Virus record (IMG/VR): IMGVR_UViG_3300029608_000062
Location: 1 to 11,864 of that record
Length of the DNA: 11,864 nt
DNA from: a virus
Strand: one strand, 5' to 3'
The translations under genes were made by a program, and so were the position numbers. The notes under the pieces are model-generated. The model saw only the letters and a list, made by a program, of their open reading frames with translations. It had not been told where the DNA came from and did no database searches. Of the stretch, positions 1-11,864 are shown one piece after another (the stretch's first letter is position 1; the number at the start of each line of letters is the position of its first letter).

Positions 1-111
1 CTGCTGGTCACGGTCTTCCATGTGATCTTGTAATCCGCGCCCGTCAGCGTGTCAGCGTCGATGGCAGTCATGTGCGCCTTGATCGCGTCCTGAATGCTCT
101 CGATCTCGGCT
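1..111. repeat. Terminal direct repeat, copy 1 (identical to 11754-11864)
   Basis: Compared base by base with the last 111 nt of the window: 111/111 identical. It lies inside a coding region. Confidence 0.97.
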
Positions 112-182
112 GTCAGCTCGTCGGCCATGCGGCGCAGCTCGCGAAGCTCGTTGACCTTGTTCTGAATTTCTGTGTTGCTCAT
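1..182 (-). CDS. 5' part of a junction-spanning 91-aa coiled-coil hypothetical protein (MSNTEIQNKVNELRELRRMADELTAEIESIQDAIKAHM...). The complete gene is 11660..11753 joined to 1..182.
   Basis: ATG at 182 (minus), with SD-like AAAGGGG 7 nt upstream (rc of about 190-196). The frame stays open to the window edge and continues in frame from 11753 down to TAA at 11662-11660. This gene is not in the ORF track because it is split by linearisation. Confidence 0.8.
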   Translation of the reverse strand, partial: MSNTEIQNKVNELRELRRMADELTAEIESIQDAIKAHMTAIDADTLTGADYKITWKTVTS

Positions 183-193
183 GGAAATACCCC

Positions 194-222
194 TTTCAAT
201 TTTCGGCGGGGCGTGGTATACT
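194..222 (+). promoter_or_regulatory. Candidate plus-strand promoter (weak -35 TTTCAA 194-199, 17-nt spacer, extended -10 TGgTATACT 214-222), antisense to the leader of the minus-strand operon
   Basis: Sequence match to an extended -10 promoter. An intrinsic terminator lies about 25 nt downstream on the same strand. Confidence 0.35.
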
Positions 223-244
223 GACCGCGACCCCTTTTGTGGTT

Positions 245-293
245 GCGTCCTGCGTTTGCTTCCTACGGCGTGCAGGACGCTTTTCTTTTGTTT
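245..293 (+). terminator. Plus-strand rho-independent terminator-like hairpin
   Basis: 9-bp GC-rich stem GCGTCCTGC (245-253) / GCAGGACGC (272-280) with an 18-nt loop, followed by TTTTCTTTTGTTT (281-293). On the minus strand no U-tract follows the stem. Confidence 0.5.
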
Positions 294-422
294 GGGAACT
301 CCGGCGGCGGGCGGCTCTGAGTATCTAGCCCTTTTGGCATTTCTCTCAAGCTTCTCCGTTCCCGCTCTTATGTTGCCGCGTTTGTGTTCGACCTTCGCCG
401 TGTCCCCTCAACTCATGGCCTT

Positions 423-450
423 ATTATATCACGATAGCGTTATATTTCAA
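423..450 (-). promoter_or_regulatory. Strong minus-strand promoter for the junction-spanning operon
   Basis: On the minus strand: -35 TTGAAA (445-450), 16-nt spacer, extended -10 TGaTATAAT (-10 hexamer at 423-428). Confidence 0.65.
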
Positions 451-514
451 TTGACGTTATGTATAAAGATATCGTTATACATTGGTGCAATTTGTACAAT
501 TGATATCGTTATAT
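433..514. promoter_or_regulatory. Four direct copies of a GATAnCGTTATA-type motif (candidate operators) spread over the two divergent promoters
   Basis: gatagCGTTATat 433-445, ttgaCGTTATgt 451-462, gatatCGTTATac 468-480, gatatCGTTATat 502-514. CGTTAT cores start at 438, 455, 473 and 507, so spacings are 17, 18 and 34 bp. Confidence 0.6.
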
Positions 515-528
515 TTATGTGGTATAAT
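500..528 (+). promoter_or_regulatory. Promoter of the RHH gene
   Basis: -35 TTGATA (500-505), 17-nt spacer, extended -10 TGgTATAAT (-10 hexamer at 523-528). Followed by AAGGAGG (538-544) and the GTG at 552. Confidence 0.7.
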
Positions 529-551
529 GCACAATGTAAGGAGGTGGAAGT

Positions 552-746
552 GTGACCGTATCAAAGGCGCAGAAAGCAGCAACTGCAAAATATGAAGCAA
601 AAGCATACGACAAAGTGCTTGTGCGGTTGCCCCGTGGAAAGAAAAGCGAAATTGAAGCAGCGGCAAAACCGAAAGGTCAGAGCGTAAACGGTTTTATCAG
701 CGAGGCCATAGACGAAAAGCTTCAGCGAAACAACACAGCCGAATAA
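552..746 (+). CDS. Ribbon-helix-helix (Arc/CopG/MetJ-like) DNA-binding protein, 64 aa; candidate repressor of the divergent promoters
   Basis: GTG start 7 nt after AAGGAGG. The protein shows a beta-strand-like VLVRLPRGKK followed by helices (SEIEAAAKPKGQSVNGFISEAIDEKL), typical of RHH proteins. A terminator lies immediately downstream. Confidence 0.75.
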   Translation: MTVSKAQKAATAKYEAKAYDKVLVRLPRGKKSEIEAAAKPKGQSVNGFISEAIDEKLQRNNTAE

Positions 747-751
747 CAAAA

Positions 752-781
752 GCCGGGGCAGATCGCCCCGGCCTCTTTTCC
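752..781. terminator. Bidirectional-looking intrinsic terminator after the RHH gene
   Basis: Stem GCCGGGGC (752-759) / GCCCCGGC (765-772) with a 5-nt loop, flanked by AAAA upstream and CTCTTTTCC downstream. Confidence 0.75.
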
Positions 782-784
782 GGA

Positions 785-812
785 TTGACAACGGCGGGAA
801 ACGCCGTATAAT
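785..812 (+). promoter_or_regulatory. Consensus sigma-70/SigA-type promoter with a palindromic spacer
   Basis: TTGACA (785-790), 16-nt spacer, TATAAT (807-812). The spacer holds the inverted repeat ACGGCG (791-796) / CGCCGT (802-807). Confidence 0.7.
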
Positions 813-834
813 GAAAACATGGAGGGATGAAGCA

Positions 835-1095
835 ATGTTAGACGAAAAAGATTTACAGCAGGTCAAAGCGATTGCAGACGAGGCGCGGCGCGGGGCTGTG
901 CATGATATGCAAGTGATTATCGAAAATACGATCATGCCGAGCCTTAAGCTTCTTGCCGAAGGCCAAAAGACGATCTTGGAGACGATGACGCCGAAAACAC
1001 GGGTTGACGAACTCGAGGACGAAATGCAGCTGTTAAAAGCTGTTATCCGGTCGCAGTCAGAGCGAATCGCGGCGCTTGAAAAGCGTCTTGCTTAA
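835..1095 (+). CDS. 86-aa coiled-coil hypothetical protein (MLDEKDLQQVKAIADEARRG...IAALEKRLA)
   Basis: ATG 835 lies 8 nt after GGAGGG (821-826). The track start at 811 sits inside the -10 box, so it is unlikely. A strong terminator follows. Function unknown. Confidence 0.7.
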   Translation: MLDEKDLQQVKAIADEARRGAVHDMQVIIENTIMPSLKLLAEGQKTILETMTPKTRVDELEDEMQLLKAVIRSQSERIAALEKRLA

Positions 1096-1112
1096 TACGA
1101 TGTTTTGCATAT

Positions 1113-1153
1113 GCCGCTGTGAGGCCGTACAAGCCTCACAGCGGCGTTTTTTA
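1113..1153 (+). terminator. Strong rho-independent terminator
   Basis: 13-bp stem GCCGCTGTGAGGC (1113-1125) / GCCTCACAGCGGC (1133-1145) with a 7-nt loop, then GTTTTTTA. Confidence 0.9.
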
Positions 1154-1275
1154 TTCTCCCGCATAAACCGAGCGGGTATATGGCTTCTGGCGGCGTGTGC
1201 GGCGTTACAACAGCCACACAGCAAACGAACGTTCGTGTTTCTTCAAGGGTTCATCGGCGGAATTTCGCTGGTGAA

Positions 1276-1493: not shown

Positions 1494-2828
1494 TCAGTTT
1501 ACACCCATTCTCGACACAAGACGCTCGTTTTGCGCAATACGGACAACATCATTAAACTGCGTAACGCGGTTCGCATCAATACTTGTATTGTATGTGTTGT
1601 AATAATTATTCGTTGTCGTTCCCGCGTTTCCGGAAACAAATTTTCCTGTTCCGGCTTCGATGTATCCACTAACCGAGCCGACCCAGCCGCCGCGCGATGC
1701 GTCATAGACATTAGAGTTCAGCGCATTGCCGTATTTAATCCTCTGCGTATTAGACAGTTGACCGGACGACATATTCAAGCCAAGCGCGGTTTTGATCTTG
1801 TCCCCGTTCAGTGTAAGCAAACCGACAATGACGTTAGCCGTATCAGCGACAAGCGCAAGTATTTCCGCAACCGGCTTCAAAGACTGTTCCAACGCCGGAA
1901 GAAAATACACGATCAGATCTCCTAACGGCTCGAGTAGCGAAAACGCTGTCTCCAGAACGGTTCCGAGCAATTCAACGATTCTGCTGTTCTTGAACGCGCT
2001 GGACACCTTGTCGATGAACTTTAAACCCGCATCCATGACCTTTTGAAAAGATGGTGTTAATTTTTCAAGAAAGTCATTTTTCAGGGACTGGAATTTCTCA
2101 CCAAGAACCGCCGTGCTTTCCTGTAATTTCACCTGATTTTCTCTGGCTTTGACAACTTCCTCATTGTTTTCATAGAAGGATGCCGCAGCGTTGTCATACG
2201 TTGCCGCCAGTGTCTCCATGATAAGCTGGTTACGCATACTTTCTGTGCCGCACTCGGCAAGCTTGGCATTAAAGCCATCTTCGGAAATGCCCGCCCAGTT
2301 CAGAGCATCAGCAAGCACGCCTGTGACCTGTCCAACCTTTGCCGTCTCATTGCTGGCTTCCATAAGACTGTTGATCGGAAGAGCATCACCAAATGTACCG
2401 GCTACGCCTGCGGCAATATTTGTCCATTCGGCGAGATCTGCTTCACTTTCGCTCAGTTTTGCCATCAGCTGTGCGGCTTCCGTCGCAGTATCCGTATCGC
2501 CGATGATCTTATATAGTCCCGAATATGACTCTTTCGCCTTCTCCGCGCTGTATCCGGCGGTGCTGAACGCTGTGTTCAGCTTGCCCATTGCAACGCGGTA
2601 TTCCTCCGTCGAAGCAATTATTTTTTCCATAACCGCTGCACCTGCGGCGATTGCCCCAAACGCAACGGCGGTGCCCTTTCCTATTGTCTTGAATGCACCA
2701 ACAATTTTTTCGCCCGTGGACTTTGCTTTTTCGGAAAACTTGTCAATGGCTGTCTTCGCCTGCTCCGTCCCTCTCGAAACCTCGCTGACATCCGCGCCAA
2801 TTTTTACACAGAGTTCAAACAGATTCAT
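1494..2828 (-). CDS. Tape-measure-like protein, short (444 aa)
   Basis: Helical, Ala/Gly-rich N-terminal region with a hydrophobic GKGTAVAFGAIAAGAAV segment. The block FGDALPINSLMEASNETAKVGQVTGVLADALNWAGISEDGFNAKLAEC resembles conserved cores I recall from Firmicutes phage tape-measure / minor tail proteins. The start is taken as ATG 2828 (MNLFELCVKIG...), which overlaps the upstream gene by 14 nt; the track start at 2897 would lie inside that gene. Confidence 0.6.
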   Translation of the reverse strand: MNLFELCVKIGADVSEVSRGTEQAKTAIDKFSEKAKSTGEKIVGAFKTIGKGTAVAFGAIAAGAAVMEKIIASTEEYRVAMGKLNTAFSTAGYSAEKAKESYSGLYKIIGDTDTATEAAQLMAKLSESEADLAEWTNIAAGVAGTFGDALPINSLMEASNETAKVGQVTGVLADALNWAGISEDGFNAKLAECGTESMRNQLIMETLAATYDNAAASFYENNEEVVKARENQVKLQESTAVLGEKFQSLKNDFLEKLTPSFQKVMDAGLKFIDKVSSAFKNSRIVELLGTVLETAFSLLEPLGDLIVYFLPALEQSLKPVAEILALVADTANVIVGLLTLNGDKIKTALGLNMSSGQLSNTQRIKYGNALNSNVYDASRGGWVGSVSGYIEAGTGKFVSGNAGTTTNNYYNTYNTSIDANRVTQFNDVVRIAQNERLVSRMGVN

Positions 2829-3060
2829 CCGTATTCGCCTTCTTTCCAGCCCGATAACCCATGTGATACAGTTCCCGCGCAAAGGCAACTGCCGCATATG
2901 CAGTTGTTCCAGGCTTTATTTCGTCCGGGCACGGGGTGGGGCGCTGGTCGCGCCCCGCTTCCGCATCATCAAAGCCCATGTTCCATGCTTCTTGAAAGCG
3001 TTTTTCCATCTCGCGAAGGTAATTCCTTGCAATTTTAAAATACGCCCTTCTTTTTTTCAT
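2815..3060 (-). CDS. 81-aa hypothetical protein (MKKRRAYFKIARNYLREMEK...)
   Basis: ORF in the operon between the gp10-like and tape-measure-like genes. The start is trimmed to ATG 3060, just after the upstream stop (3075). The SD is weak. Confidence 0.55.
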   Translation of the reverse strand: MKKRRAYFKIARNYLREMEKRFQEAWNMGFDDAEAGRDQRPTPCPDEIKPGTTAYAAVAFARELYHMGYRAGKKANTDESV

Positions 3061-3074
3061 GCAATCACCGCTTT

Positions 3075-3500
3075 CTACGTTTTTTCTTGGAAGCCTTGTT
3101 CTTGGAAGCACTGGGACAACGCACTTTTGCTGTTCATTGCCGCCGGTTTTAGAAATGGCTTTGCTTTCTGCTTTGCAGTTCCGAGCTCCACATATGGTGC
3201 ATACTCGACGTTTGTACCGACAAAAACGGATAATTCATCGTCGTTCGGCGCTGCGCCGCTGTATTTGCCTGTCTGGATAACACCGTTTTTCTGTTTATTC
3301 GCTTTATAGGTTTCGACTGTTGGCTTCTTCCCAGCGAGTGCCCATGTGATGCTGTTTCGCAAAAGGCCAGTGTCTACCGTCGCAAGCCCCTTTGCCGCTC
3401 TCTCAATGACCATGCCGCACATCGTAAGTGCTTTCAATACCCGCAACTCGATTTCCTCTTTGCATTCTGCACTATAGTCTTTGAACTCAATGTTTGTCAT
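3075..3500 (-). CDS. HK97 gp10-family protein (head-tail joining / tail completion type), 141 aa
   Basis: Carries the family hallmarks VDTGLLRNSI ... VGTNVEYAPYVELGT ... KPFLKPA. SD GGAGAG lies upstream of ATG 3500. Confidence 0.8.
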   Translation of the reverse strand: MTNIEFKDYSAECKEEIELRVLKALTMCGMVIERAAKGLATVDTGLLRNSITWALAGKKPTVETYKANKQKNGVIQTGKYSGAAPNDDELSVFVGTNVEYAPYVELGTAKQKAKPFLKPAAMNSKSALSQCFQEQGFQEKT

Positions 3501-3606: not shown

Positions 3607-3616
3607 GTCTGCCCCC

Positions 3617-4288
3617 TTAAAAGTTCTCGATAGCCTGTCCGGTCAGCTCTTCCCACCATTTTCCCATGCTGATAATATGCTCGGGAGTTGTCACTGAACG
3701 GCTGCTTCCGCCGCGTCCGGAACAATAGGACGCAACGCCTTCCAGCTCATTCCAAGCCCGCAAAACTGTCCCCATACCCGTTTTGCAGTTGTCGGAAAGA
3801 ATACGCAGCGCAAGCGCGTCTTTGGTATCATCCGCGTTTTCAGAAGCGTCCAGCGCATACTTTGAAATCACGCGCAGCATGGTCGCGTTGCTCTCGTACC
3901 GCTCCGCAAACGAATAGTAATCTTCCACGGTCAGCGCACCGGATTTCAGAAGCTCCAATGCGTTCGCGTCGATCGCGTCCGGGTTCGCGAGGCTGTTTTT
4001 CTGAACGTCCTTTTCAAGCTCCTTGCGCAGTTCCTTGCACTTCGCGTCAAACTCCGGCCAGATTCTGGCCTCGGCAATCTTGAAAGCTGCGTCAGCCTTG
4101 TTCAGTTCAAGTTCTGCCGTCGCAATGCGAAGCCGCTTGTCTTCTTCGTTGTCGTTAGGCTTCCACGCCTTCGCGTCGGTGTCTGCCTGCCGTGCCTGCT
4201 CAAGACTGCTATAAGCCTCAGCGTATTCATCTCGGGCTGTCTTGAAAGCAGCGTCAAGCTGCTGTGCATAGGTGTTGTACTTACTCAT
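3617..4288 (-). CDS. 223-aa predicted all-helical / coiled-coil hypothetical protein
   Basis: ORF with SD GAAAGGAAA. Charged, Ala/Glu/Lys-rich heptad-like sequence. No motif I recognise. Confidence 0.75.
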   Translation of the reverse strand: MSKYNTYAQQLDAAFKTARDEYAEAYSSLEQARQADTDAKAWKPNDNEEDKRLRIATAELELNKADAAFKIAEARIWPEFDAKCKELRKELEKDVQKNSLANPDAIDANALELLKSGALTVEDYYSFAERYESNATMLRVISKYALDASENADDTKDALALRILSDNCKTGMGTVLRAWNELEGVASYCSGRGGSSRSVTTPEHIISMGKWWEELTGQAIENF

Positions 4289-4321
4289 AAATTTCCTTTC
4301 TGCGGTCTTTCCCGCCGTCTA

Positions 4322-4606
4322 TCAATCCAAATTTGGACAGTTTTCATAGCCGTTGCGGAATACGCTGTCGGCCTCATAGCTGACCTCAAAAAGCGGGGTA
4401 TGGTAGCCGCTGCTGTCCTTTACAAGCTCGCGGTTTGCATCGTCCAGCGCATGAAACGCCGGAATGATCTGCTTTTCCCATGTCTGCCTTTCAATGGCCT
4501 TGAAGCAATGCGGGCAAGTGCGGGCATAGTCCCCATTTGTGACGCTTCGCCCGTACACTTCCCATGTGCCGCCGCAATAGTGGCACTTGATACGCATATA
4601 GCCCAT
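4322..4606 (-). CDS. 94-aa zinc-ribbon hypothetical protein
   Basis: CxxC (CHYCGG) ... CxxC (CPHCF) pair. Strong SD AAAGGAGAA before ATG 4606, directly after the terL stop. Confidence 0.75.
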   Translation of the reverse strand: MGYMRIKCHYCGGTWEVYGRSVTNGDYARTCPHCFKAIERQTWEKQIIPAFHALDDANRELVKDSSGYHTPLFEVSYEADSVFRNGYENCPNLD

Positions 4607-4621
4607 GACTTTCTCCTTTCT

Positions 4622-6004
4622 TTAAGCGCTCTGCCCTCGCTTGCGGTAAATCTCACGGTCTAACGCATAAGCGAGGCTGTCTATACTGTGGTTGTCCCTG
4701 TCAGGGAGAGAGGAAAGCATATTGCCGTCCTTGTCCTTTTCGTATTCGTAGTTTGCAAGCTCCCGCGCCGCGTTTGGTGTCCTTGCAGGGTCAACCACAA
4801 TGCGCCGGTGTTGCAGCCACTTGATACGATACGCCACGCATCCCGGCTCTTTGTGGCAAGCTCTGGCCTGCTTTAAGCCGCAGTCCCTTAAATCGCTTAT
4901 GCTTTTCGGTTCTGCTGCATCGCAATAAATGTCGCTGTGATCTTGAAAGCACAAGCCGCTTACCGGGGAAAGGTAGCTGCTGCCTTTGGTGTCCCCCTCC
5001 ACAAGTGGGGCGATTTCCTCCGCAAGCTGCCGGTTACTCATGCCGCGCTTGTAAATCTCGTTCAGAATGTAGATTGTCTCGTGCTTACGGTCATAGCTGC
5101 AACGGATAAAGCAAGCGGGGTCTGCCGCAAAGCCAAAGTCCACGCCGGAAAAGAAGTATTCCATGTTCGCCACTTCCTCTGCGGTGATCTCCCGCACTTC
5201 CAGCGCCGGGAATACCTCCGCGCCGGTGCCGGTCGCCTCGCCTAAGTATTCATGCCGGTATGCCTGCTCATTGACGGCCTCCAAGCGTTCAGCCTCCGCT
5301 ATGAAAGCCTCGCCTAACCATTCGGCGGGTATGTCCTTATAGGTGGTGTGAAAGGTGATCCCCTGCGCGTCTGGCTCTGCAACAAACTGATTCGCCCAAT
5401 TCGCCTTACTGATCGGCGGGTTGAAGCTGCGGAACACTTGCGGATTTGTCCCTTGCCCTCGCATGACCGATTGCAAAACATTTCGGGCGAAGTTTGCACC
5501 GTTCAGCTCTGCAAATTCTTCAAACCAACAATAGCGGAAAGTGCCGCGCCTGGGCTTGATAGATTTCAATTTGCCTGCATCGTCCAGCCCTCGAAAAAGG
5601 ATCTGTGCGCCGGTCGGCCTGTATTCATACATCATCGGGGAAACGGTCGCTTTCCAGAGGTGGGAAACGCCCAGCATATCAATAGCCCATGCGATTTGAG
5701 AAAAAACGCTGTCGCGCATTGTCCCCGCTACCTTGCGGAACACAATAGCGTTGCTCTGGCCTGTGGGGTCGCTCTGTATGCCGTCCACGATCTCAAACGA
5801 TACGAAAGAGCTTTTGCAGCTCCCGCGCCCGCCCGGAAGATTGTAAAAGCGGTGCTGCCCTGCTTTTATATCCTCGTGCAAAGGGAGATAGCACGGGGCT
5901 ATGAAGTCCTCCACGGTGGCGGTGGTGGTCATGCTATCCCGGCGCTGCTTCTCTGCCATTTCAAGGGCTGCTATGCGCTGTTCCAGCTTGTCCCGTGTTA
6001 TCAT
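4622..6004 (-). CDS. terL: Terminase large subunit, PBSX / Terminase_3-like, 460 aa
   Basis: P-loop LPGGRGSCKSS, Walker-B-like YCWFEEF, and nuclease-domain acidic motifs GVDFGF, CDAAEP and DNHSIDSLAYAL. ATGA overlap with the upstream terS-like gene. Confidence 0.95.
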   Translation of the reverse strand: MITRDKLEQRIAALEMAEKQRRDSMTTTATVEDFIAPCYLPLHEDIKAGQHRFYNLPGGRGSCKSSFVSFEIVDGIQSDPTGQSNAIVFRKVAGTMRDSVFSQIAWAIDMLGVSHLWKATVSPMMYEYRPTGAQILFRGLDDAGKLKSIKPRRGTFRYCWFEEFAELNGANFARNVLQSVMRGQGTNPQVFRSFNPPISKANWANQFVAEPDAQGITFHTTYKDIPAEWLGEAFIAEAERLEAVNEQAYRHEYLGEATGTGAEVFPALEVREITAEEVANMEYFFSGVDFGFAADPACFIRCSYDRKHETIYILNEIYKRGMSNRQLAEEIAPLVEGDTKGSSYLSPVSGLCFQDHSDIYCDAAEPKSISDLRDCGLKQARACHKEPGCVAYRIKWLQHRRIVVDPARTPNAARELANYEYEKDKDGNMLSSLPDRDNHSIDSLAYALDREIYRKRGQSA

Positions 6005-6354
6005 TGCCGCATTTCCTCCAAAGCCGTTAAACGCTCTGCAAGGTCGTTCTGATCGGTCAGGCGCACGGCATAATCAAGGGCGATTTTCGCGGCGTTTACT
6101 CTGGCGGCGGGGTTTATTTCCTCATCCTCCATGACCGTTTGCAATGTGGATAATGCAGGCTCTAATAGCTGCTGCGCCCTGCGCGTTGCGTCCTGTACTA
6201 CTCCGGCAAATGCTTCCCGGTATCGCTGGCAAAATTCGGGGTTTTCAAAATAGCGCCTCATGGTGCGGTCTGTGATCCCCGCTTTCTCTGCCGCCTCTAA
6301 CTTCGTTTTCGAGGTCAAGAGCGCAGATAAGGCGCGTTCTTCATTGGGTGTCAT
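6001..6354 (-). CDS. terS: Putative terminase small subunit (HTH-containing), 117 aa
   Basis: Sits immediately upstream of terL and is translationally coupled to it (ATGA at 6001-6004). N-terminal HTH-like KLEAAEKAGITDRTMRRYF followed by a helical tail. The start is trimmed to ATG 6354 (SD AAAGGAG; ATGA overlap with the upstream gene). The call rests mainly on position. Confidence 0.6.
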   Translation of the reverse strand: MTPNEERALSALLTSKTKLEAAEKAGITDRTMRRYFENPEFCQRYREAFAGVVQDATRRAQQLLEPALSTLQTVMEDEEINPAARVNAAKIALDYAVRLTDQNDLAERLTALEEMRQ

Positions 6355-6713
6355 TCGCTGCGCTCCTTTCCGATTTCTTCCGCTTTTTTCCGCTGGTAAA
6401 GCTCTATCCAGTCCGCAAGCGTCATGCAAACAAGCCACTTTGCACGGTTTTTTCTCCAAAAGACAGCCGGTAAACCATCTTTGAATTTTTCGCTATCTCT
6501 CTGCGCCTGCTGAATCCACTCATAAAGCGCCTGCCTTTCTCCGCGCTTGCACTCAATATGTACGCCCTCAAGCCCTGTTAGATCGGGCGTACTGCCATAG
6601 CTCACGGCCTCGCCAGGCTGCACGGGGTATCCGTATTCCTGCAAGAGGCGGCAAAGCTCCAGCTCCCCGGCGCGGCCTTTCGCTTGTGATCTTTTCCCGC
6701 TCAGTTCGTTCAC
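6351..6713 (-). CDS. PD-(D/E)XK nuclease, Hjc-like Holliday-junction-resolvase fold, 120 aa
   Basis: Motif spacing E17 (GRAGELE), D44 (TPDL) and E54-x-K56 (IECK) matches the E-D-ExK arrangement of archaeal-Hjc-type resolvases. GTG start at 6713. Confidence 0.6.
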   Translation of the reverse strand: MNELSGKRSQAKGRAGELELCRLLQEYGYPVQPGEAVSYGSTPDLTGLEGVHIECKRGERQALYEWIQQAQRDSEKFKDGLPAVFWRKNRAKWLVCMTLADWIELYQRKKAEEIGKERSE

Positions 6714-6716
6714 CCC

Positions 6717-7070
6717 CTAAAAAAGCTCCTCGAAAAATCTTAGTTCCCGAATCCGTCCGGAAAAGAAATGATTTATCCGATAGTTGCAATTTTTGAATGG
6801 TGTCTGAAAATATTTGTCAATCAGCATCGTGTAACAATCCGGGTCAATGTCTACAATTGAACCGCATCTGTCGCGCTGCTCCACATAAGGCATGTCAAGC
6901 ATAATGCGGACAATTTGGCTTGCCCTGATTGGCGGGTGCGGTTCCCCTCGCACTTCTTCGTATTTCTCGAAAAAGTAGCGAAACACGTTTAGCGTTTCTT
7001 CAAGACTGTAAGCCCCTCCGGGGTATACACTGGCGGCAATTCTTGAAAACTTGTCAAAATCAAAAAGCAT
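6717..7070 (-). CDS. 117-aa hypothetical protein
   Basis: ORF with SD GAGGAAAG before ATG 7070. No motif recognised. Confidence 0.7.
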   Translation of the reverse strand: MLFDFDKFSRIAASVYPGGAYSLEETLNVFRYFFEKYEEVRGEPHPPIRASQIVRIMLDMPYVEQRDRCGSIVDIDPDCYTMLIDKYFQTPFKNCNYRINHFFSGRIRELRFFEELF

Positions 7071-7140
7071 TTCTCTTTCCTCGATTCAAGAGCGGGGGGC
7101 GTGGACGCGCTAGCGTCCTCCCTCCTACTGTGTGAAAACG

Positions 7141-7277
7141 TAAGTTTTCCCTCCTATTCTCTCGCTCTGTTTCTTCCTCTTCCTCTTACTCTTACTCTTA
7201 GTAACTTCGTGACGTTTTGCCGTCACAATGTTACACCAGTGACCGGGGTTTTTAGTGCTCACCGTCACAATGTGACG
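7141..7277. repeat. ori-like region: strand-asymmetric pyrimidine tract with tandem hexamers plus GTGAC/GTCAC palindromes
   Basis: 7141-7200 is almost pure pyrimidine on the plus strand and contains tandem CCTCTT CCTCTT ACTCTT ACTCTT (7176-7199). CCGTCACAATGT occurs at 7220-7231 and 7262-7273. CGTCACAaTGTGACG (7263-7277) is a 7-bp-arm palindrome, and GTGACG (7209-7214) pairs with CGTCAC (7221-7226). The region lies at and after the 3' end of the replisome-organizer gene. Confidence 0.5.
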
Positions 7278-7650
7278 ATTTGCGTTCTCGCAATCGCCGC
7301 ATTCTTGCCGCTGAATCGCTTTCGCTTCCCGTATTTGATACGGCTTCTGGCATAAAAAAGCTAGTGTCTGTAATGTCTTCAACGAGCTTATAGCGGCGAA
7401 GAATTGCGATTGCGTTTGCTACGTTGTCCACATCTTCATTGATAGCGAACGCAATTTCTTTTGCAAAGGTTTCATCATATCCGTTATAGGAAAGAACGCC
7501 ATCCGTGCGCAGGCTTGCAAGCTGCATTTTCAAATAAATGATTGTGAAAACTTCCCCGCCTGCCTGTTTTCTCAATCGGCGCATTCCCTCAGAATTGAAA
7601 TACCCTTCTTTCAGTTTCAACCACCAAAATCTTTTCTTGTCTTCTGCCAT
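7252..7650 (-). CDS. Phage replisome organizer, N-terminal-domain protein (132 aa)
   Basis: KKRFWWLKLKEGYFNSEGMRRLRKQAGGEVFTIIYLKMQLASLRTDGVL...NVANAIAILRRYKLVE matches the pattern YWLKLKE-FF...IK.L....GG..Y.IIYLKL.L.SL of replisome-organizer N-domains. Confidence 0.75.
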   Translation of the reverse strand: MAEDKKRFWWLKLKEGYFNSEGMRRLRKQAGGEVFTIIYLKMQLASLRTDGVLSYNGYDETFAKEIAFAINEDVDNVANAIAILRRYKLVEDITDTSFFMPEAVSNTGSESDSAARMRRLRERKSSHCDGEH

Positions 7651-7654
7651 TCGC

Positions 7655-7927
7655 TTAAATCTCCATTTCCAGAATTTGAATCCTTAAAATTATGTTCTTC
7701 GCTTTCCATGAAGATTCTGTCTTCATGTCTTCTTTCTTGCCCACATCCTGTGCAACAATGTGCTTATACGCCGCCCCGACATCCTCGGCGGGCATTTCTA
7801 AAAGCCTTTCTTTCAATCGCCGGAGTTCGTATTTCTTTTTCGCCCTTGTAATGTCCGCCTGAAAAAATGTCTCTGCAAGCTCTTCCCCAAAATATTCTGC
7901 AAAGTCTGCATATCTCCCTATTAGCAT
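7655..7927 (-). CDS. 90-aa hypothetical protein (MLIGRYADFAEYFGEELAETFF...)
   Basis: The start is trimmed to ATG 7927, 6 nt after AAGGAG. The track start at 7960 would overlap the upstream gene. Confidence 0.7.
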   Translation of the reverse strand: MLIGRYADFAEYFGEELAETFFQADITRAKKKYELRRLKERLLEMPAEDVGAAYKHIVAQDVGKKEDMKTESSWKAKNIILRIQILEMEI

Positions 7928-7929
7928 AT

Positions 7930-8190
7930 TTAACTCCTTTCCACGGCATCCGCCGCGCATAAAATTTCTTTCGCCCTGTGCCGCATGGAGCGGACAAAGC
8001 GCGCCTTTTCTTCCTCGTTTGCAGGAAGGTAATAGCCAGTCTGGTTGTTGCTCAGTATGGCCGCGCCCGCTCGTCTCTCGGCGGAGATCATAGCGCGGAC
8101 GACTCGACCGTCAAGGCCGGTTATTCCCGCCAAATCTCGAAGCGGAACGGCGTTAGCCTGCCCGTAGCGCAGAAGATCAGCTATTTTCAT
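7930..8190 (-). CDS. 86-aa putative winged-helix DNA-binding protein
   Basis: The start is trimmed to ATG 8190 (MKIADLLRYGQANAVPLRDLAGITGLDGRVVRAMISAERRAG...). The HTH-like segment is recognised by eye only. Confidence 0.5.
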   Translation of the reverse strand: MKIADLLRYGQANAVPLRDLAGITGLDGRVVRAMISAERRAGAAILSNNQTGYYLPANEEEKARFVRSMRHRAKEILCAADAVERS

Positions 8191-8368
8191 CGGACAGGAA
8201 CCTTTCCAGCTCGTCAAGGTTGATCAGCGTAAACGTATAGCTTCCGTTTACGGGCTTGATCGTACCATCTTTGACCCATCTGCGCAGCAGACGTTCGTTG
8301 ATGTAAGTTCCGGGGTCTTGCGCCTTGATCTCTGCAACTGCTTTCGGAATAGTTCTAATTCGTACCAT
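8177..8368 (-). CDS. 63-aa excisionase-like (Xis/MerR-type HTH) DNA-binding protein
   Basis: Strong SD AAAGGAG 6 nt before ATG 8368. The layout TIPKAVAEI...INERLLRRWVKDGTIKPVNG..FTLINLDELERFL resembles Tn916-Xis / HTH_17 excisionases. It is the first gene after int. Confidence 0.5.
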   Translation of the reverse strand: MVRIRTIPKAVAEIKAQDPGTYINERLLRRWVKDGTIKPVNGSYTFTLINLDELERFLSDENS

Positions 8369-8387
8369 TGTAAACTCCTTTCAATTC

Positions 8388-8445
8388 AAAAAAATAAAAA
8401 GTGCCCACCGCTCACGCACTGTTACCATGCGTAAGTGATAGGCAC
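8388..8445 (-). terminator. Very strong, strand-specific intrinsic terminator between int and the Xis-like gene
   Basis: In minus-strand RNA the 18-nt arms GUGCCUAUCACUUACGCA / UGCGUGAGCGGUGGGCAC pair at 17 of 18 positions (3 G-U, 1 A-C mismatch) around a 9-nt loop, then UUUUUAUUUUUUU follows (A-run 8388-8400). On the plus strand the same arms would have 4 mismatches. Confidence 0.8.
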
Positions 8446-8503
8446 AAAGGCACACGCAAAAAGGAAATTTCTCACCTTAAAGCTACTTCATTCAGTTTTC
8501 TTT

Positions 8504-8532
8504 ATTGTATCACAAAATTGTATATTTTGCAA
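8504..8532 (-). promoter_or_regulatory. Minus-strand promoter immediately after the int stop codon
   Basis: -35 TTGCAA (8527-8532), 17-nt spacer, extended -10 TGaTACAAT (-10 hexamer at 8504-8509). Confidence 0.55.
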
Positions 8533-8535
8533 GCG

Positions 8536-9918
8536 TTATGCGTTCTTTTTATGAAAAATAGTTTCGCTTATACAGTCTGCTGTCTTGCGCTTTGCTTCGT
8601 CTATGGCGTGCGCGTATGTGTCAAGCGTCGTCGACACGTCAGAATGTCCCAACATTCCAGCCACGGTCAGCGCGTCCACGCCATTTGAAAGCAAAATAGA
8701 GGCGGCAGAGTGGCGGAAAAGATGCGGGTTAATGTGCGGCAGGTCATGGCGCTTGCAAAATTCATCAAGTTCGAGATTCACTGTTCCCGGATTCATCGGC
8801 GCACCGTCCCACCTTGTAAAAACAAGGTTGCTGTTTTTCCAAAGGTCGCCCAACTTCAACCGCTCTTCTGCTTGCCTTGCCCGCAATCTGCGTAAAAGCT
8901 CCGCCGTTTCTTTTGGTATCGCTACTTTGCGGCTATTTCCGGTCTTTGTCGTTCCACTTTGTATGCCGGTTTCAGGAAGATAGATCATGCTTTTGTCGAT
9001 CAAAATTTCACGCCGGTCAAAGTCCACCTTCTCCCACGTCAAGGCGAGGGCTTCACCCCTGCGGCAGCCCGTCGAAATAAAAAGGGTTATCAATGCACGG
9101 AACGGCAGCGGTTCGGCTTCCAGCGCGGTCAGAACGGCTTTTAGCTGCTCCGGCTGCAATGTCTTACTTTCCCGAACGCGCTTTTTCTTTGGCAGCGTCA
9201 CCCGCTCGGCGGGGTTGTATTTGATGATCATTTCTTTGTATGCCTGTCCGAGCACTGTAGAAATAATGGCGTGATAATCTCGAACTGTTCCAGGAGACAG
9301 TGCTTTCCCCTCACCTGTCAGCTTGAAAAGATCTTTGCGGCCTAATTTTTCCTCAATAATAGCGGCATTTTTGCGGCTGATTGGCTGGTTTTCGCATAGT
9401 CTACGAATCAAGTTCCCATAAACGCCGCATTTTTCCGCAAAAGCTTTGCGCGTCTCACCCTCAGGAATAAGCGCATTAAAGTCAACGGTAGGAAGCGCGA
9501 ATACCTGCCACCGGCAGGCGCCAGGCTCTGAAAGCTTCTTGTAAAGATCATTCAAGGTCTTTGGACGAATTTCTTGTATTGGTATTTGCCCTATGTATTC
9601 GTTGATTCGTTCGGTTTGCCGGCGGACGCGGGCTAGCGTTTGCGGCTTGTCTCCGCGCTGCTCCCTGATAGTGTAGCAGTATGCGGCATACTCCGCGAAT
9701 GTCTGCCTGTTGTCTGCTTGGAACCCGTTTATCAGGTCTTGTTCAAACTCGGTCGCTACTCGCTGTAACTCCCGGTTCAATTCTCTCGCGGACATAGGCT
9801 TTTCCGGTTTCCACGTCTTGTAGTGCCTGATTTGTCGATCAATGGAATCACGGCCGAGCGTGACCGTGATTTTGTACGCCGTTCCATGTTTCCCCTCGAT
9901 TTTCCTGATACTCGCCAT
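8536..9918 (-). CDS. int: Tyrosine site-specific integrase, 460 aa, with an N-terminal arm-type (AP2-like) DNA-binding domain
   Basis: Catalytic signature TGCRRGE (Arg), HLFRHS (His-x-x-Arg), LGHSDVSTTLDTYAH (His ... Tyr). The N-terminus MASIRKIEGKHGTAYKITVTLGRD is typical of arm-binding domains. SD AAAGGAG lies inside the end of the upstream gene. Confidence 0.95.
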   Translation of the reverse strand: MASIRKIEGKHGTAYKITVTLGRDSIDRQIRHYKTWKPEKPMSARELNRELQRVATEFEQDLINGFQADNRQTFAEYAAYCYTIREQRGDKPQTLARVRRQTERINEYIGQIPIQEIRPKTLNDLYKKLSEPGACRWQVFALPTVDFNALIPEGETRKAFAEKCGVYGNLIRRLCENQPISRKNAAIIEEKLGRKDLFKLTGEGKALSPGTVRDYHAIISTVLGQAYKEMIIKYNPAERVTLPKKKRVRESKTLQPEQLKAVLTALEAEPLPFRALITLFISTGCRRGEALALTWEKVDFDRREILIDKSMIYLPETGIQSGTTKTGNSRKVAIPKETAELLRRLRARQAEERLKLGDLWKNSNLVFTRWDGAPMNPGTVNLELDEFCKRHDLPHINPHLFRHSAASILLSNGVDALTVAGMLGHSDVSTTLDTYAHAIDEAKRKTADCISETIFHKKNA

Positions 9919-9921
9919 TGT

Positions 9922-10083
9922 TTAAGCTCCTTTCCTGTCTCGAATGTTCATCACCCCTTCCCATTTGCATTTCTTGCAAAACGTTATAACGCCGCTGCAA
10001 ATAGCGTCAGGGGTTAATTTGTGAAGCTTCTGGCCGCAGACCGGGCAGCAATACCACAACTGTCCGTTTATCAACCTAACCAC
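9922..10083 (-). CDS. 53-aa Cys-rich zinc-ribbon protein (Cys_rich_KTR-like), translationally coupled to int
   Basis: CPVCGQK...FCKKCKWE matches the CPVCG.KTR...CPKCK pattern. GTG 10083 lies 8 nt after AAGGAG (10092-10097). The 114-aa track ORF (to 10266) would run through the repeats and the promoter. Confidence 0.6.
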   Translation of the reverse strand: MVRLINGQLWYCCPVCGQKLHKLTPDAICSGVITFCKKCKWEGVMNIRDRKGA

Positions 10084-10098
10084 GCCGCCCTCTCCTTT

Positions 10099-10371
10099 CT
10101 TGGCGCACACTTGGCGCACAATTTCGGTAAATAGGCTGAAACAGGCTGTAGTTTTGGCGCACAGTTCAAGAGTAAAACGCCCAATTTTGCGTAGAAGCCA
10201 CAACGTTTTCGCGTGGTTGGTAAGAATATTGTATATTCTTGGGGCAAATATTACAACTCGCAACATTGCACAAATTTAATAACTATTTTTCTCTGTTTCA
10301 GCCTAATATACCTGTTTTTGTTGCCGCTTTTGTTCCTTCTCTAGTTTCTTGGCGCACATTCTTGGCGCACA
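10099..10371. repeat. Five same-orientation copies of (C/T)TTGGCGCACA plus a 12-bp inverted repeat: candidate integrase arm-type sites / attP or operator array
   Basis: TTGGCGCACA occurs at 10100-10109, 10111-10120, 10154-10163, 10349-10358 and 10362-10371. AGGCTGAAACAG (10133-10144) is the reverse complement of CTGTTTCAGCCT (10293-10304). All lie in a 297-bp non-coding gap upstream of the KTR-int pair. Confidence 0.7.
10228..10256 (-). promoter_or_regulatory. Candidate promoter of the KTR-int pair, with a palindrome over its -10 box
   Basis: -35 TTGTAA (10251-10256), 17-nt spacer, -10 TACAAT (10228-10233). The inverted repeat AAGAATA-n5-TATTCTT spans 10222-10240. Confidence 0.5.
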
Positions 10372-10380
10372 AGTTGAAAA

Positions 10381-10716
10381 TCAACGCCGTTTTTTAACGG
10401 AATCCGCCCACGAGGAAGCGAAGATTCGCAAAAGACTGATATCTTCTTCCGAACCATTCTCGCAGATCGTTGCCAAACTGCGCATCAACGCGCCGTATTC
10501 GTCAAGCAGACTGCGGTTTTGGCTGACGGCCTTCGCCATCCGGAACAGAGCGGCGGCAATGGCGGGGAAATAGCCGTCGGTTTTGTTTTCGTCAAGGGTG
10601 CGCAGATTCTTTTCAAGCTGCGTGAACAGCGCGTCCGCAGTCTTCGGCAGGCGCTTGCAGTTGGTTTCACTCAGGAAGCGCGCATAAGCGGCTTCGGTTT
10701 CCTTCATAGTAAGCAT
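10381..10716 (-). CDS. 111-aa hypothetical protein (MLTMKETEAAYARFLSETNCKRLPK...)
   Basis: The start is trimmed to ATG 10716, 7 nt after AAGGAG. Predicted helical; no motif recognised. Confidence 0.7.
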   Translation of the reverse strand: MLTMKETEAAYARFLSETNCKRLPKTADALFTQLEKNLRTLDENKTDGYFPAIAAALFRMAKAVSQNRSLLDEYGALMRSLATICENGSEEDISLLRIFASSWADSVKKRR

Positions 10717-10729
10717 ATTGAGTCTCCTT

Positions 10730-10999
10730 TCAATCATCAAATCTGTACACAAAGCCCTCCGGCAGAAGGTTGACAATCTGGCAGGCAGGAATTACACAAT
10801 CCGGGAGCGGACAGGTGAAGCAGCTGGCGCTGTAAGGGCAGGTTGCTGTGCTTGTGTTCTTCCTGTGCTTTTTCGGTGACCTTGCTGCTCTGAGAAGGTT
10901 TGAAACGGTGGCGTGGTTCTTTTTGAGCATGGCGGCAATCTCTTTGACGCTAAAGCCGCGCTCATAGAGGTCATAACACTCAAACTGCTTTCTGGTCAT
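10730..10999 (-). CDS. 89-aa sigma-70 region-4-like HTH protein with a Cys-rich tail
   Basis: MTRKQFECYDLYERGFSVKEIAAMLKKNHATVSNLLRAA resembles region-4/LuxR-type HTH proteins found on Firmicutes mobile elements (compare Tn916 orf7-like). The C-terminus is CPYSASCFTCPLPDC. The start is trimmed to ATG 10999. Confidence 0.6.
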   Translation of the reverse strand: MTRKQFECYDLYERGFSVKEIAAMLKKNHATVSNLLRAARSPKKHRKNTSTATCPYSASCFTCPLPDCVIPACQIVNLLPEGFVYRFDD

Positions 11000-11333
11000 G
11001 GTGAAGCCTCTCTTTCTGCGCCCGCACAGCGTCTGCGTTGGCTTTGGCACGTTCGGCGCTTTCGATGTACCCTTTTACGCCCTGTGCGTCATAATGCCCG
11101 GTTTGTAGATGGTATTCCAGCACGGAATCTGAGAGAATGTCGGAAACAATCCACAGACGGTATCCGATTGTCTCAGTGTCGTAGTCGGTGAGCTTCTTCT
11201 GTTCCCGGTCTCCGAAGTAGTCTTCCAGCAGATCATAGAGCAGCTTTCCGGCCTGATCGATTTTCAGAAATGCGCTGTCAAGCGCTGTTTCAATCGTCAC
11301 GCGTTCTTCTCTTGTCGTTCTGGAAATGAACAT
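10980..11333 (-). CDS. 117-aa hypothetical protein (MFISRTTREERVTIETALDSAF...)
   Basis: The start is trimmed to ATG 11333, 9 nt after AGGAGG. It overlaps the downstream gene by 20 nt. Confidence 0.7.
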   Translation of the reverse strand: MFISRTTREERVTIETALDSAFLKIDQAGKLLYDLLEDYFGDREQKKLTDYDTETIGYRLWIVSDILSDSVLEYHLQTGHYDAQGVKGYIESAERAKANADAVRAQKERLHHDQKAV

Positions 11334-11334
11334 A

Positions 11335-11646
11335 TCAATTTTCCTCCTTCGTCTGCACAACGGGGAGCATTTGCAGCGTGTCTGCGGTAAGAGAAACCAA
11401 CTGCTCAACTGCAAACAGCGCTGCGCCCAGCGCGTCAAAGTTCTCTTCCATCCATTCCCGGGCGGCCTTGTCCAGATCGCCGCCGGTCTCCTCTGCGTAC
11501 TCTTCCAGAATCCCCTCGCAGGTTAGACCGTGAATCATCGGTTCAAGCACGTGTTCAAGAAGCCCATGCGCAGATACGGCGTTCAGTTCAGCGCCGATCA
11601 GTTCCGCCTTGAGCGCGGCGGGGGCGATAATATATCTTTCGTCCAT
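11335..11646 (-). CDS. 103-aa acidic hypothetical protein
   Basis: ATG 11646 lies 5 nt after GGGAGGG, directly after the stop of the junction-spanning gene. Confidence 0.7.
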   Translation of the reverse strand: MDERYIIAPAALKAELIGAELNAVSAHGLLEHVLEPMIHGLTCEGILEEYAEETGGDLDKAAREWMEENFDALGAALFAVEQLVSLTADTLQMLPVVQTKEEN

Positions 11647-11659
11647 AATTGCCCTCCCG

Positions 11660-11864
11660 TTACGCTACAACAAATCTACGCGAAGTGGTCGAGCGGGTGA
11701 AGCGCTCGGCAAGCTCGGGCATTGCCTTCTTGAACGCCGTGCTGTCAAAGCGGCTGCTGGTCACGGTCTTCCATGTGATCTTGTAATCCGCGCCCGTCAG
11801 CGTGTCAGCGTCGATGGCAGTCATGTGCGCCTTGATCGCGTCCTGAATGCTCTCGATCTCGGCT
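11660..11864 (-). CDS. 3' part of the junction-spanning 91-aa gene (same gene as 1..182; 11754-11864 duplicates 1-111)
   Basis: TAA at 11662-11660. Translation ...TWKTVTSSRFDSTAFKKAMPELAERFTRSTTSRRFVVA. The frame is continuous with 1..182 once the duplicate is collapsed (94 + 182 = 276 nt). Confidence 0.8.
   Translation of the reverse strand, partial: AEIESIQDAIKAHMTAIDADTLTGADYKITWKTVTSSRFDSTAFKKAMPELAERFTRSTTSRRFVVA
11754..11864. repeat. Terminal direct repeat, copy 2 (identical to 1-111)
   Basis: 111/111 identity read directly from the sequence. Confidence 0.97.

Follow-up and report, generated by a model that had tools for sequence, protein, structure and literature searches.

The DNA considered here, positions 1 to 11,864 of IMG/VR record IMGVR_UViG_3300029608_000062 (hereafter the window, meaning this whole stretch of 11,864 nucleotides), is a small circular element whose integrase inserts it inside the major tail protein (MTP, tail tube) gene of a phage, splitting that gene after about codon 67. 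Bases 1-111 recur exactly at 11754-11864 in a self-comparison, an overlap left by assembly, and the contig therefore closes as a circle of 11,753 bp. An independent assembly of the same element (L203, ENA ERZ918290) is 11,880 bp long, that is, 11,753 bp plus an overlap of 127 nt, so that the closed 11.75-kb unit proposed by an earlier reading of the letters alone (the sequence-only reading) is borne out. All but two of the genes lie on the minus strand (Table 1). Gene content was read from Pfam, PHROGs and NCBIfam profile searches of the open reading frames (ORFs) of the window, and gene calls place the true starts of several ORFs later than the longest ORF implies, giving 117 aa for the small terminase subunit and 444 aa for the tape-measure-like protein. 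The first gene of the leftward operon, g01, encodes 91 aa and spans the contig junction. Scans of the window for tRNA, tmRNA and Rfam families returned nothing above threshold, and a megablast of the window against plasmids gave no match.

The insertion site is revealed by relatives of the element's large terminase subunit (TerL), of which there are many in IMG/VR and GTDB. The closest of them (L007) carries DNA 98-99% identical to the window in a linear, permuted form. The element spans 6134-16583 of that contig, both of its ends map to approximately 10236-10246 of the window, and its flanks are phage late genes, with the first 67 codons of an MTP gene on the 5' side and the remainder of the gene on the 3' side. 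The three junction sequences have the common core TGCCC(A/C)AAGAA, and the attL and attR cores are identical. Joined together, the flanks encode an in-frame protein of 196 aa that matches phrog_885 'major tail protein' (3e-22), and the best 80 of 299 related IMG/VR contigs, most of them 40-42 kb, hold the identical restored MTP without interruption. The core of the MTP gene at attB reads TGCCCNNNGAA. In a further contig (L202, from ENA) the window's own element is integrated directly after the MTP 5' fragment; the proteins in this contig are 96-100% identical to those of the window, most of them 100%, and include the 444-aa tape-measure-like protein. The identical element exists, then, in both a circular and an integrated state, and the integrated form that the sequence-only reading had presumed lies, in both contigs, inside the MTP gene of a siphophage of about 41 kb.

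A collection-wide scan with a pattern specific to the integrase-proximal half-site (attL or attP) returned 32 contigs, 20 with attL and 12 with attP. Every one of the 20 attL sites falls in frame within the block D[YFM]G[SE]D[VI]DNCP[KV] of an MTP, with 46-100% identity among these MTPs; all 20 insertions point the same way as the phage late operon, and the integrase gene always adjoins attL within the MTP gene. The general form of the core is TGCCC-NNN-GAA; its central triplet varies (AAA, CAA, GAA, TGT and others), but agrees between the attL and attR of any one locus, as expected where strand exchange happens at those bases. No MTP homologue was found within the elements, which carry no replacement for the part of the gene that is lost.

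Around the attP core of the window, the arm-type repeat TTGGCGCACA occurs five times, at 10100, 10111 and 10154 on one side and at 10349 and 10362 on the other, and these copies are candidate arm sites for the integrase. That the element encodes a tyrosine integrase is confirmed. An arm-binding N-terminal domain, also claimed for this protein, has no direct match in Pfam, but the five repeats do flank the core. The claimed Xis-like helix-turn-helix (HTH) protein matches HTH_17 and lies beside the integrase gene, but its score falls below the Pfam cut-off; it is 79-100% conserved together with this integrase clade. A promoter-like site (TTGTAA-17-TACAAT, 10256-10228 on the minus strand) straddles the attP core, and is therefore whole only in the circle and cut in two by integration. 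It is the only such site directly upstream of the KTR-integrase gene pair in a promoter scan.

Judged by its genes, the phage into which the element inserts is a complete temperate siphophage of about 41 kb. Stitched together, contigs L324, L128 and L043 give 38.6 kb of a 41.4-kb IMG/VR prophage. Its genes encode a tyrosine integrase, a CI-like HTH repressor and YqaJ/RecT; a ParB-methylase and, directly upstream of the portal, a TerL of the Terminase_6 type; an SPP1-type portal, an SPP1-gp7/Mu-F-like minor head protein, a gp10-like protein, a scaffold, the major capsid protein (MCP) and connectors; and the MTP, a 675-aa tape measure protein (TMP) and distal tail proteins. The genes for MTP and TMP are separated by two ORFs that matched no family and are presumed from their position to encode chaperones. 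The sequence-only reading suggested a search for a co-occurring prophage with related PBSX-type terminase or gp10 genes, and this phage is such a partner as regards its gp10-like protein, about 30% identical to that of the window, but not as regards TerL, since the phage and element proteins have no meaningful BLAST similarity (E 0.05). We considered whether the phage might lack a terminase and be supplied with one by the element, and rejected this because it has a TerL of its own. In variants of this phage (L237-L239, positions 1-378), precomputed Pfam annotation gives the minor head protein an ADP-ribosyltransferase toxin domain (PF03496).

By portal, the closest cultured relative of this phage is Flavonifractor phage Chenonceau (50% identity), and metagenome-assembled genomes (MAGs) with sister elements bear titles of Oscillospiraceae or Eubacteriales; together these point to gut Oscillospiraceae-type Clostridia as the hosts. 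The closest named phages by TerL, C. perfringens phages whose TerL is 42% identical to that of the element, carry portals 32% identical to the portal of the resident phage (E ~1e-62), and thus the two families, TerL and portal, work together in nature. We regard the resident phage as the likely helper of the element, and refer to it as such below.

Both terminase subunits had been claimed for the element. For TerL this is secure: it scores 149 bits against TIGR01547, the PBSX family, where the cut-off is 105, and carries a Walker A-like GGRGSCKS and a CWFEE motif, so that by sequence the ATPase appears intact, with an RNaseH-like nuclease domain present. The complete phages closest to it by TerL are 42-48% identical. 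For the small subunit, TerS, the call rests on weak matches to four PHROG TerS families (7.7e-5 to 3e-3) and a 4-nt overlap with terL, while NCBIfam and a profile search of PDB sequences gave no match. A minimal replication module was also correctly recognised, comprising a replisome-organizer N-terminal domain protein and nearby GTCACAATGTGAC-type repeats, with no helicase, loader or primase among the window's proteins by Pfam, PHROGs or NCBIfam.

The two virion genes named by the sequence-only reading, one HK97 gp10-like and one tape-measure-like, are both supported by the profile searches. The latter is homologous to the 675-aa TMP of the helper: its residues 1-121, beginning MNLFELCVKIGAD, show 35-37% identity to helper TMPs, its last 29 residues show 66-69% identity to some helper variants, and a full 675-aa TMP occupies the same position in sister elements. 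ORFs of at least 200 aa number four, encoding the integrase, TerL, the TMP-derived protein and the 223-aa g17, a protein with more than 499 homologues and no Pfam, PHROG or NCBIfam match. The AlphaFold (AF2) model of g17 (pLDDT 74) is all-alpha, with a long helical hairpin and a small helical domain, and Foldseek found no match for it in the PDB or BFVD at E<0.001. A profile search of PDB sequences likewise gave nothing at E<0.001, and g17 was rejected as a cryptic capsid, portal or scaffold protein. The model indicates that g17, which the earlier reading had named as a possible capsid or portal homologue, is neither an HK97-fold capsid protein nor a portal; a scaffold-like or size-redirection role for it is speculation. 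As g17 is the only unexplained protein of the four, and is all-helical with no fold match, there is no room in the element for a capsid, portal, tail-tube or lysis gene, none of which was found in the window by Pfam, PHROGs, NCBIfam or the g17 fold search. The absence of such genes, which was the basis for calling the element a satellite, therefore stands.

Table 1. Features of the 11,864-nt window, in order of position, with the matches or observations behind each call.
Feature	Position	Strand	Match or remark
Assembly overlap closing the circle	1-111	.	identical to 11754-11864
g01, N-terminal part (91 aa in total)	1-182	-	ATG at 182, GGGG ribosome-binding site; 91-aa call in L203
Leader of leftward operon, ~240 nt, structured	183-422	-	kept in sister elements of other backbones
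Divergent promoter region	423-528	.	minus-strand promoter 450-423; plus-strand promoter 500-528
Arc/ribbon-helix-helix (RHH)-like DNA-binding protein, 64 aa, candidate repressor	552-746	+	phrog_13890 2e-19; Arc-like PHROGs 1e-5
Coiled-coil protein, 94 aa, no assigned function	811-1095	+	phrog_33872 2e-17
Tape-measure-derived protein, 444 aa	1494-2828	-	phrog_23464 4e-76; shortened, diverged relative of the helper's 675-aa TMP
g19, 81 aa	2815-3060	-	in family members always directly upstream of the TMP-like gene
HK97-gp10-like / tail-completion (Neck1) protein	3075-3500	-	PF04883 2e-8, phrog_5 7e-16, TIGR01725 3e-9
g17, 223 aa, predicted all-helical, family signature gene	3617-4288	-	kept even in terL-less variants
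g16, 94 aa, Cys-rich, zinc-ribbon-like	4322-4606	-	phrog_15404 1e-10; co-occurs with TerL
Large terminase subunit TerL, PBSX/Terminase_3 type	4622-6004	-	PF04466 6e-34, PF17288 9e-14, TIGR01547
Probable small terminase subunit TerS, 117 aa	6001-6354	-	weak PHROG matches and position
PDDEXK/RusA-like nuclease, 120 aa	6351-6713	-	PF24608 6e-7, phrog_244 3e-22
g12, conserved 117-aa protein	6717-7070	-	identity 57-65% across most of the family
Ori-like repeats, GTCACAATGTGAC-type, direct and inverted	7201-7283	.	at and just past the point where the replisome-organizer gene ends (3')
Replisome-organizer N-terminal domain protein, 132 aa	7252-7650	-	PF09681 6e-18, phrog_5968 2e-35, TIGR01714 1e-21
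g10, 90 aa	7655-7927	-	between xis and replication gene; gene call
g09, 86 aa	7930-8190	-	between xis and replication gene; phrog_2113 2e-13
Xis-like HTH protein, 63 aa, candidate excisionase	8177-8368	-	HTH_17 3e-4, under Pfam cut-off; neighbour of int
Tyrosine integrase, 460 aa	8536-9918	-	PF00589 4e-31
Cys-rich KTR-domain ORF	9922-10266	-	PF14205 8e-5
attP	10100-10374	.	core TGCCCCAAGAA at 10236-10246, read on the minus strand; imperfect inverted repeats flank the core
Leftward early operon, downstream part	10381-11646	-	g02, g03, g04, g05; gene calls
g05, 111 aa	10381-10716	-	gene call
g04, HTH_38/sigma-r4-like, 89 aa	10730-10999	-	PF13936 1e-6
g03, 117 aa	10980-11333	-	gene call
g02, 103 aa	11335-11646	-	gene call
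g01, C-terminal part, beyond the junction	11660-11753	-	sequence reading and gene call

The combination of this integrase clade with TerS, TerL, g16 and g17 is found in the window and in contigs L010, L012 and L023. Variants L229 and L237-L239 have the integrase and att site of the window and keep g17 and the gp10-like gene, but are without terL and g16; instead they carry (13696-15199 of L229; 8197-10004 of L237, L238 and L239) genes for a sigma-70-r2-like protein of 202-204 aa, a TerS-like protein and three small ORFs. This TerS-like protein is 49% identical to the TerS of the window. The idea that it mimics the helper's putative TerS was rejected, the two having no similarity. The same integrase clade and attP also occur on smaller circles of 5,791 bp (L230, L241), 7,621 bp (L225, L258) and 10,903 bp (L216), the smallest of which holds int, xis, the nuclease, a TerS-like gene and regulators, and is without g17, terL, gp10 and TMP genes.

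Some of these relatives reveal where the late genes come from. The TMP of the L238 element is full-length (675 aa; 11021-13048) and 93% identical in amino acids, 92% in nucleotides, to the TMP of the phage in which it resides (17175-19202). By sequence this appears to be a recent capture, and one that creates a 2-kb repeat inviting homologous recombination. L010 and L012 have gp10-like genes with 69% identity to that of the helper. Given these two sets of identities, we read the late zone of the element as genes captured from this phage lineage. In contig L206 the MTP gene is intact and the order is phage TMP, then a whole element with intact attP, then TMP again (7006-7042, 16150-17668), an order that comes either from recombination between the homologous TMP genes, giving a cointegrate, or from an assembly that ran through the repeat.

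The terminase genes are not confined to elements of this kind. A module of nuclease, TerS, TerL, g16 and g17, with TerL 96-98% identical, is also carried by elements with other integrases at the 3' end of tRNA-Thr, and other carriers lie near tRNA-Ser, -Gln or -Cys genes. A sister clade with a 399-aa integrase (L001 5592-5637; L009, L018, L019, L037) has a 46-bp identity to the tRNA-Thr(GGT) 3' end, which has the appearance of a classical chromosomal tRNA att site. On closed circles of 11-12 kb (an 11.3-kb circle in L003, module at 4285-10664; also L005, L011 and L013), the module, again with TerL 96-98% identical, accompanies a XerC-like recombinase, ParA, a small partner ORF and a DnaG-DnaB-type primase-helicase, with no gp10 or TMP genes; these look like plasmid-like carriers of a hijack module. 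One chromosomal relative (L233/L234 4435-12605, from GCA_048390965.1) lies beside obg, rpmA and rplU, and has a DUF6291 protein with an IstB/DnaC-like replication module, sigma-like and TerS-like genes, g17 and a gp10-like gene, and no terL. GenBank record MT836267.1 ('Bacteriophage sp.', human faeces, Mexico) is a circle of the tRNA-Thr type with a 124-nt overlap. It probably derives from the virus-like particle (VLP) data of PMC8361208, an IDBA-UD assembly of chloroform- and DNase-treated VLPs, as the overlap fits IDBA-UD settings.

Taking these results together, we think it probable that the window is the excised circular form of a helper-embedded, helper-dependent phage satellite; each mechanistic detail of the scheme that follows is put forward with less confidence. 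In the integrated state, with MTP split and no second copy, the prophage would be without a tail tube. Upon prophage induction, late transcription from the head genes would cross attL into the KTR-int-xis, replication and terminase genes. Int and Xis would then excise the element, precisely restoring the tube gene and permitting tails to be made. The circle would replicate from its own origin using replisome proteins of the host or the helper, and its TerS and TerL would recognise satellite DNA and package it into helper-made procapsids. As products of captured and diverged helper late genes, the gp10-like and tape-measure-derived proteins would, with g17, bias assembly or DNA delivery toward the satellite. 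Our guess is that g17 acts in assembly bias or capsid-size control, and that the TMP allele aids injection into helper lysogens. Prophages often block entry at the TMP step. Since attB lies in the helper itself, the satellite can settle only in cells that carry the helper. As to the earlier proposal of a helper-dependent element with its own terminase and no shell, the excised and integrated forms, the candidate helper and the natural pairing of TerL and portal families all speak for it, whereas it is from these that we infer packaging into helper virions and dependence on the helper.

Several points weigh against this account. Excision on induction, the formation of DNase-protected satellite DNA and dependence on the ~41-kb phage are deduced from sequence. 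The product of 6001-6354 is probably TerS, a weak assignment, and the promoter at attP is a weak match, agreeing with the consensus at only 9 of 12 positions. It is only by analogy that a PBSX-type TerL can plausibly be expected to dock on the portal of the helper. Evidently terL is dispensable for the lineage, which leaves the packaging of the terL-less variants unexplained. The replication module is minimal, and circles from bulk metagenomes could also mean a plasmid-like state. Lastly, the roles given above to the gp10-like, TMP-derived and 223-aa proteins are guesses.

The lifestyle itself has a precedent. Tommasini, Mageeney and Williams (2023; PMC10111431) described helper-embedded PICIs (HE-PICIs), mapping 491 phage-inducible chromosomal islands (PICIs) of Gram-negative bacteria to 14 sites; these fall in nine lambda-like late genes, and the tail-tube gene V holds one. 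HE-PICIs are co-oriented with the interrupted gene, carry no replacement sequence, capture late genes and have a doubled arm motif on each side of attP, the motif TGTATTGC being doubled both upstream of the attP centre, at about 81 bp, and downstream of it, at about 132 bp; the prototype, 11capE, is without terS and is presumed to use the helper's cos machinery (PMC10111431). The likeness is close. Here too a small integrative satellite lies co-oriented inside a helper late gene that only excision restores, with captured helper late genes in a downstream 'late zone' and with relatives of related integrase at chromosomal sites. By what was found at the att sites (20 of 20 attL in frame in MTP genes and co-oriented, no MTP inside the elements, MTP restored from the joined flanks), the element is helper-embedded.

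The two differ, however, in most of their parts. The four-zone organisation of Gram-negative PICIs, with its AlpA, Bro-N network proteins and primase, is absent, and the order of int, HTH, replication and late genes in the window is analogous only. The motif TGTATTGC is also absent, and the element instead doubles TTGGCGCACA on both sides, about 110-135 bp from the core, which is the same architecture in another sequence. HE-PICI helpers are lambdoid phages of Enterobacterales, whereas here the helper is an SPP1-like siphophage of gut Clostridia. In place of the terS-less state of 11capE there is a complete foreign TerS/TerL pair, and, unlike HE-PICIs, the element has no capsid gene; what it has captured is a gp10-like neck protein and a tape measure. 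In the literature searched, a satellite lying within a tail gene of its helper had no precedent besides PMC10111431, and no Gram-positive extension was found in literature using the term HE-PICI. Papers on gut VLPs mention candidate satellites and gene transfer agents (GTAs) in Oscillospiraceae, but not this element's family.

Among other satellites, the capsid-forming cfPICIs (Alqurainy et al.; de Sousa et al. 2023, PMC10085698) have a core of terL, terS, MCP, protease, portal, adaptor and connector. An own terL does not in itself set the element apart, since terL is already a core gene of cfPICIs. The element resembles them in having both terL (well above the TIGR01547 cut-off) and a probable terS upstream of it, together with a head-tail joining protein, and in presumably taking its remaining virion parts from a helper. 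It differs in that MCP, protease, portal, adaptor and connector found no match in Pfam, PHROGs or NCBIfam, the gp10-like protein being its only such part; cfPICIs steal tails only, whereas the element would need both capsids and tails. SaPI-type PICIs are induced by a helper-encoded antirepressor and show helper-dependent transfer at high frequency. With them the element has in common an integrase, divergent regulators, a replicon of its own and terS, the absence of structural and lysis genes, and a size within ~10-15 kb, and the TerS-only variants L229 and L237 resemble them most. SaPIs, in contrast, have chromosomal att sites, the helper's TerL, a primase-replicase and cpm/ppi-type genes for remodelling and interference; the element has attB in a phage MTP gene and its own TerL, a replisome-organizer N-domain in place of the pri-rep, and no match to cpm/ppi families in the window by Pfam or PHROGs. 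Nor did Pfam or PHROGs match P4-like sid, psu or delta or an alpha primase-helicase in the window, and P4-like satellites use the cos site of a P2-like helper, whereas the candidate helper here is a siphophage. PLE-type functions found no PHROGs or Pfam match in the window, PLE-specific models not having been run separately; PLEs combine a Vibrio repertoire (RepA_N, TcaP, NixI and others) with ICP1 as helper, while MAG titles imply another host clade for the element. At 11.75 kb and with no MCP, portal, tail or lysis set, it is not an autonomous tailed phage. The earlier statement that it matches none of the described satellite families thus survives for gene content and lineage, but not for mode of life, which was already known from HE-PICIs.

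A wider class into which the arrangement falls is that of intervening elements with regulated gene integrity, for which PMC10111431 cites skin in sigK and SPbeta in spsM. In these, as here, the integrated element splits a gene that programmed excision reconstitutes in frame. Skin and SPbeta split developmental genes of their host and serve the host's programme, whereas here the split gene belongs to another mobile element, and most likely the arrangement serves the element that is inserted. Provirophages in giant-virus genomes are a further case of a virus parasite residing in the genome of the virus it exploits, although in a eukaryotic system, with unrelated proteins and with a capsid encoded by the virophage itself.

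Other explanations must be weighed against a helper-embedded satellite. One that we consider unlikely is that the element is an integrative satellite for which the resident phage is a target and not the helper, so that insertion in the tube gene disables the prophage or holds it hostage (as interference, defence or 'regulated gene integrity') and some other phage with a PBSX-matching portal mobilises the element. This would suit the unrelated TerLs of element and phage, the occurrence of the near-identical terminase module (96-98%) in tRNA-gene sister elements away from this phage, and the lack of a replacement MTP, which leaves the prophage tail-less while the element is integrated. However, the captured TMP (93%) and gp10-like (69%) genes come from exactly this phage lineage, the resident portal family partners this TerL family in complete phages, and all 20 insertions follow the direction of the late operon; a tail-less helper, moreover, is useless to a satellite unless the element excises. 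More improbable still is a small replicon, plasmid-like or descended from a phage-plasmid, or a decaying mini-prophage, that keeps its terminase by chance and is never packaged, its circular contigs being plasmids and its MTP insertions dead ends. TerL is intact and 96-98% identical across very different backbones, which argues for selection on packaging; the att sites are precise, with arm repeats, and the identical element is known both excised and integrated; and family members occur in IMG/VR and in a record probably from a VLP virome. The replication module and ori-like repeats do fit such a replicon, as do the sister circles with ParA and primase-helicase and the origin of some circular forms in bulk metagenomes; family sizes are mostly ~10-12 kb, though the 5.8- and 7.6-kb circles exist.

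Very little probability remains for the two other alternatives. Membership of the described HE-PICI lineage, that is, of the Gram-negative PICIs with 11capE-type integrases, would account for the common lifestyle, co-orientation, absence of a replacement sequence, arm repeats doubled to either side of attP, and order of int, HTH, replication and late zone. Yet the integrase is not significantly similar to that of 11capE in E. coli NRG857c (L349:19503-20735), the best BLASTP match being E 0.014 with 26% identity over 53 aa. Furthermore, the window has no Pfam match to AlpA, Bro-N or primase, its Xis-like protein is unlike the AlpA-type HTH neighbour of the 11capE integrase, its arm motif is different, and its hosts are Clostridia, not Gammaproteobacteria. 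Least credible of all is that assembly produced the contig by chimerism or by collapse of a larger prophage, an objection that the sequence-only reading had itself raised. Contig L206, which joins phage and element through the shared TMP, possibly by a path through a repeat, is the sort of contig that such an artefact would give. We set this explanation aside because a separate assembly, with another k-mer overlap, gave the identical 11,753-bp circle; many relatives, besides, close as circles of 5.8-12.1 kb, and in tens of contigs, drawn from different samples, the attP, attL, attR and attB junctions are reciprocal and exact to the base.

A helper-embedded satellite therefore remains our preferred reading, and judged from its sequences the family would be a second, independently evolved helper-embedded lineage, of gut Firmicutes, that brings a complete terminase of foreign origin and lacks shell genes. 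We lean, if only slightly, towards a fuller version in which the element is the founding example of an independent Gram-positive lineage of such satellites, widespread in the human gut, with an integrase that has become specific for a conserved run of codons in the tail-tube gene of siphophages from Oscillospiraceae. In that version a complete foreign terminase, rather than TerS alone, would take over helper procapsids; the element would belong to a larger undescribed family whose nuclease-TerS-TerL-g16-g17 hijack module moves among phage-embedded, tRNA-integrated and plasmid-like backbones; and the captured TMP allele may aid injection into helper lysogens, the only cells with attB. Satellites shape phage ecology and gene flow, and knowledge of them comes almost entirely from Proteobacteria, staphylococci and Vibrio. 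If the reading is true, the helper-embedded lifestyle reaches gut Firmicutes that are strict anaerobes and arose two or more times, with integrases unrelated to each other. Its repertoire of a captured tape measure and a complete terminase with no shell genes lies outside current satellite models, and such elements are probably filed as small 'viral' contigs, as in IMG/VR and GenBank. It would also provide a concrete helper-satellite pair with base-precise att sites, testable in Flavonifractor or other Oscillospiraceae lysogens, and a naturally occurring case of a phage that can make tails only once its parasite has excised.

The remaining features of the window concern its regulation. Between the divergent promoters, and overlapping both -35/-10 pairs, the 15-nt repeat GATAnCGTTATAnnT occurs three times at a spacing of 34-35 nt (433-516), and these copies are candidate operators for the Arc-like protein, whose gene runs opposite to the rest of the element. 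A consensus promoter (785-812) precedes the 94-aa coiled-coil gene, and a strong terminator-like hairpin (1111-1147) follows it. The leader at 183-422 has a fold z-score of -3.3 against shuffled controls and a nucleotide identity of 83-89% to L001 (7143-7239) and L037 (9226-9627), whose backbones are otherwise different; it has no Rfam match, and could be a regulatory RNA element. The true start of the KTR ORF is probably downstream of the attP core, because the annotated N-terminus crosses it. Just downstream of the TMP-like gene, the non-coding stretch 1370-1470 is 70-76% conserved in L001 (7683-7782) and L037 (8000-8249), which are tRNA-integrating sister elements without a TMP-like gene; a pac site is one possibility. 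Some family members show apparent decay, with the integrase of L009 split into ORFs of 162 and 254 aa (1868-3156) and the TerL of L041 into two overlapping ORFs (4458-5791). The latter contig is binned as Bacteroidaceae, which is probably a binning error.

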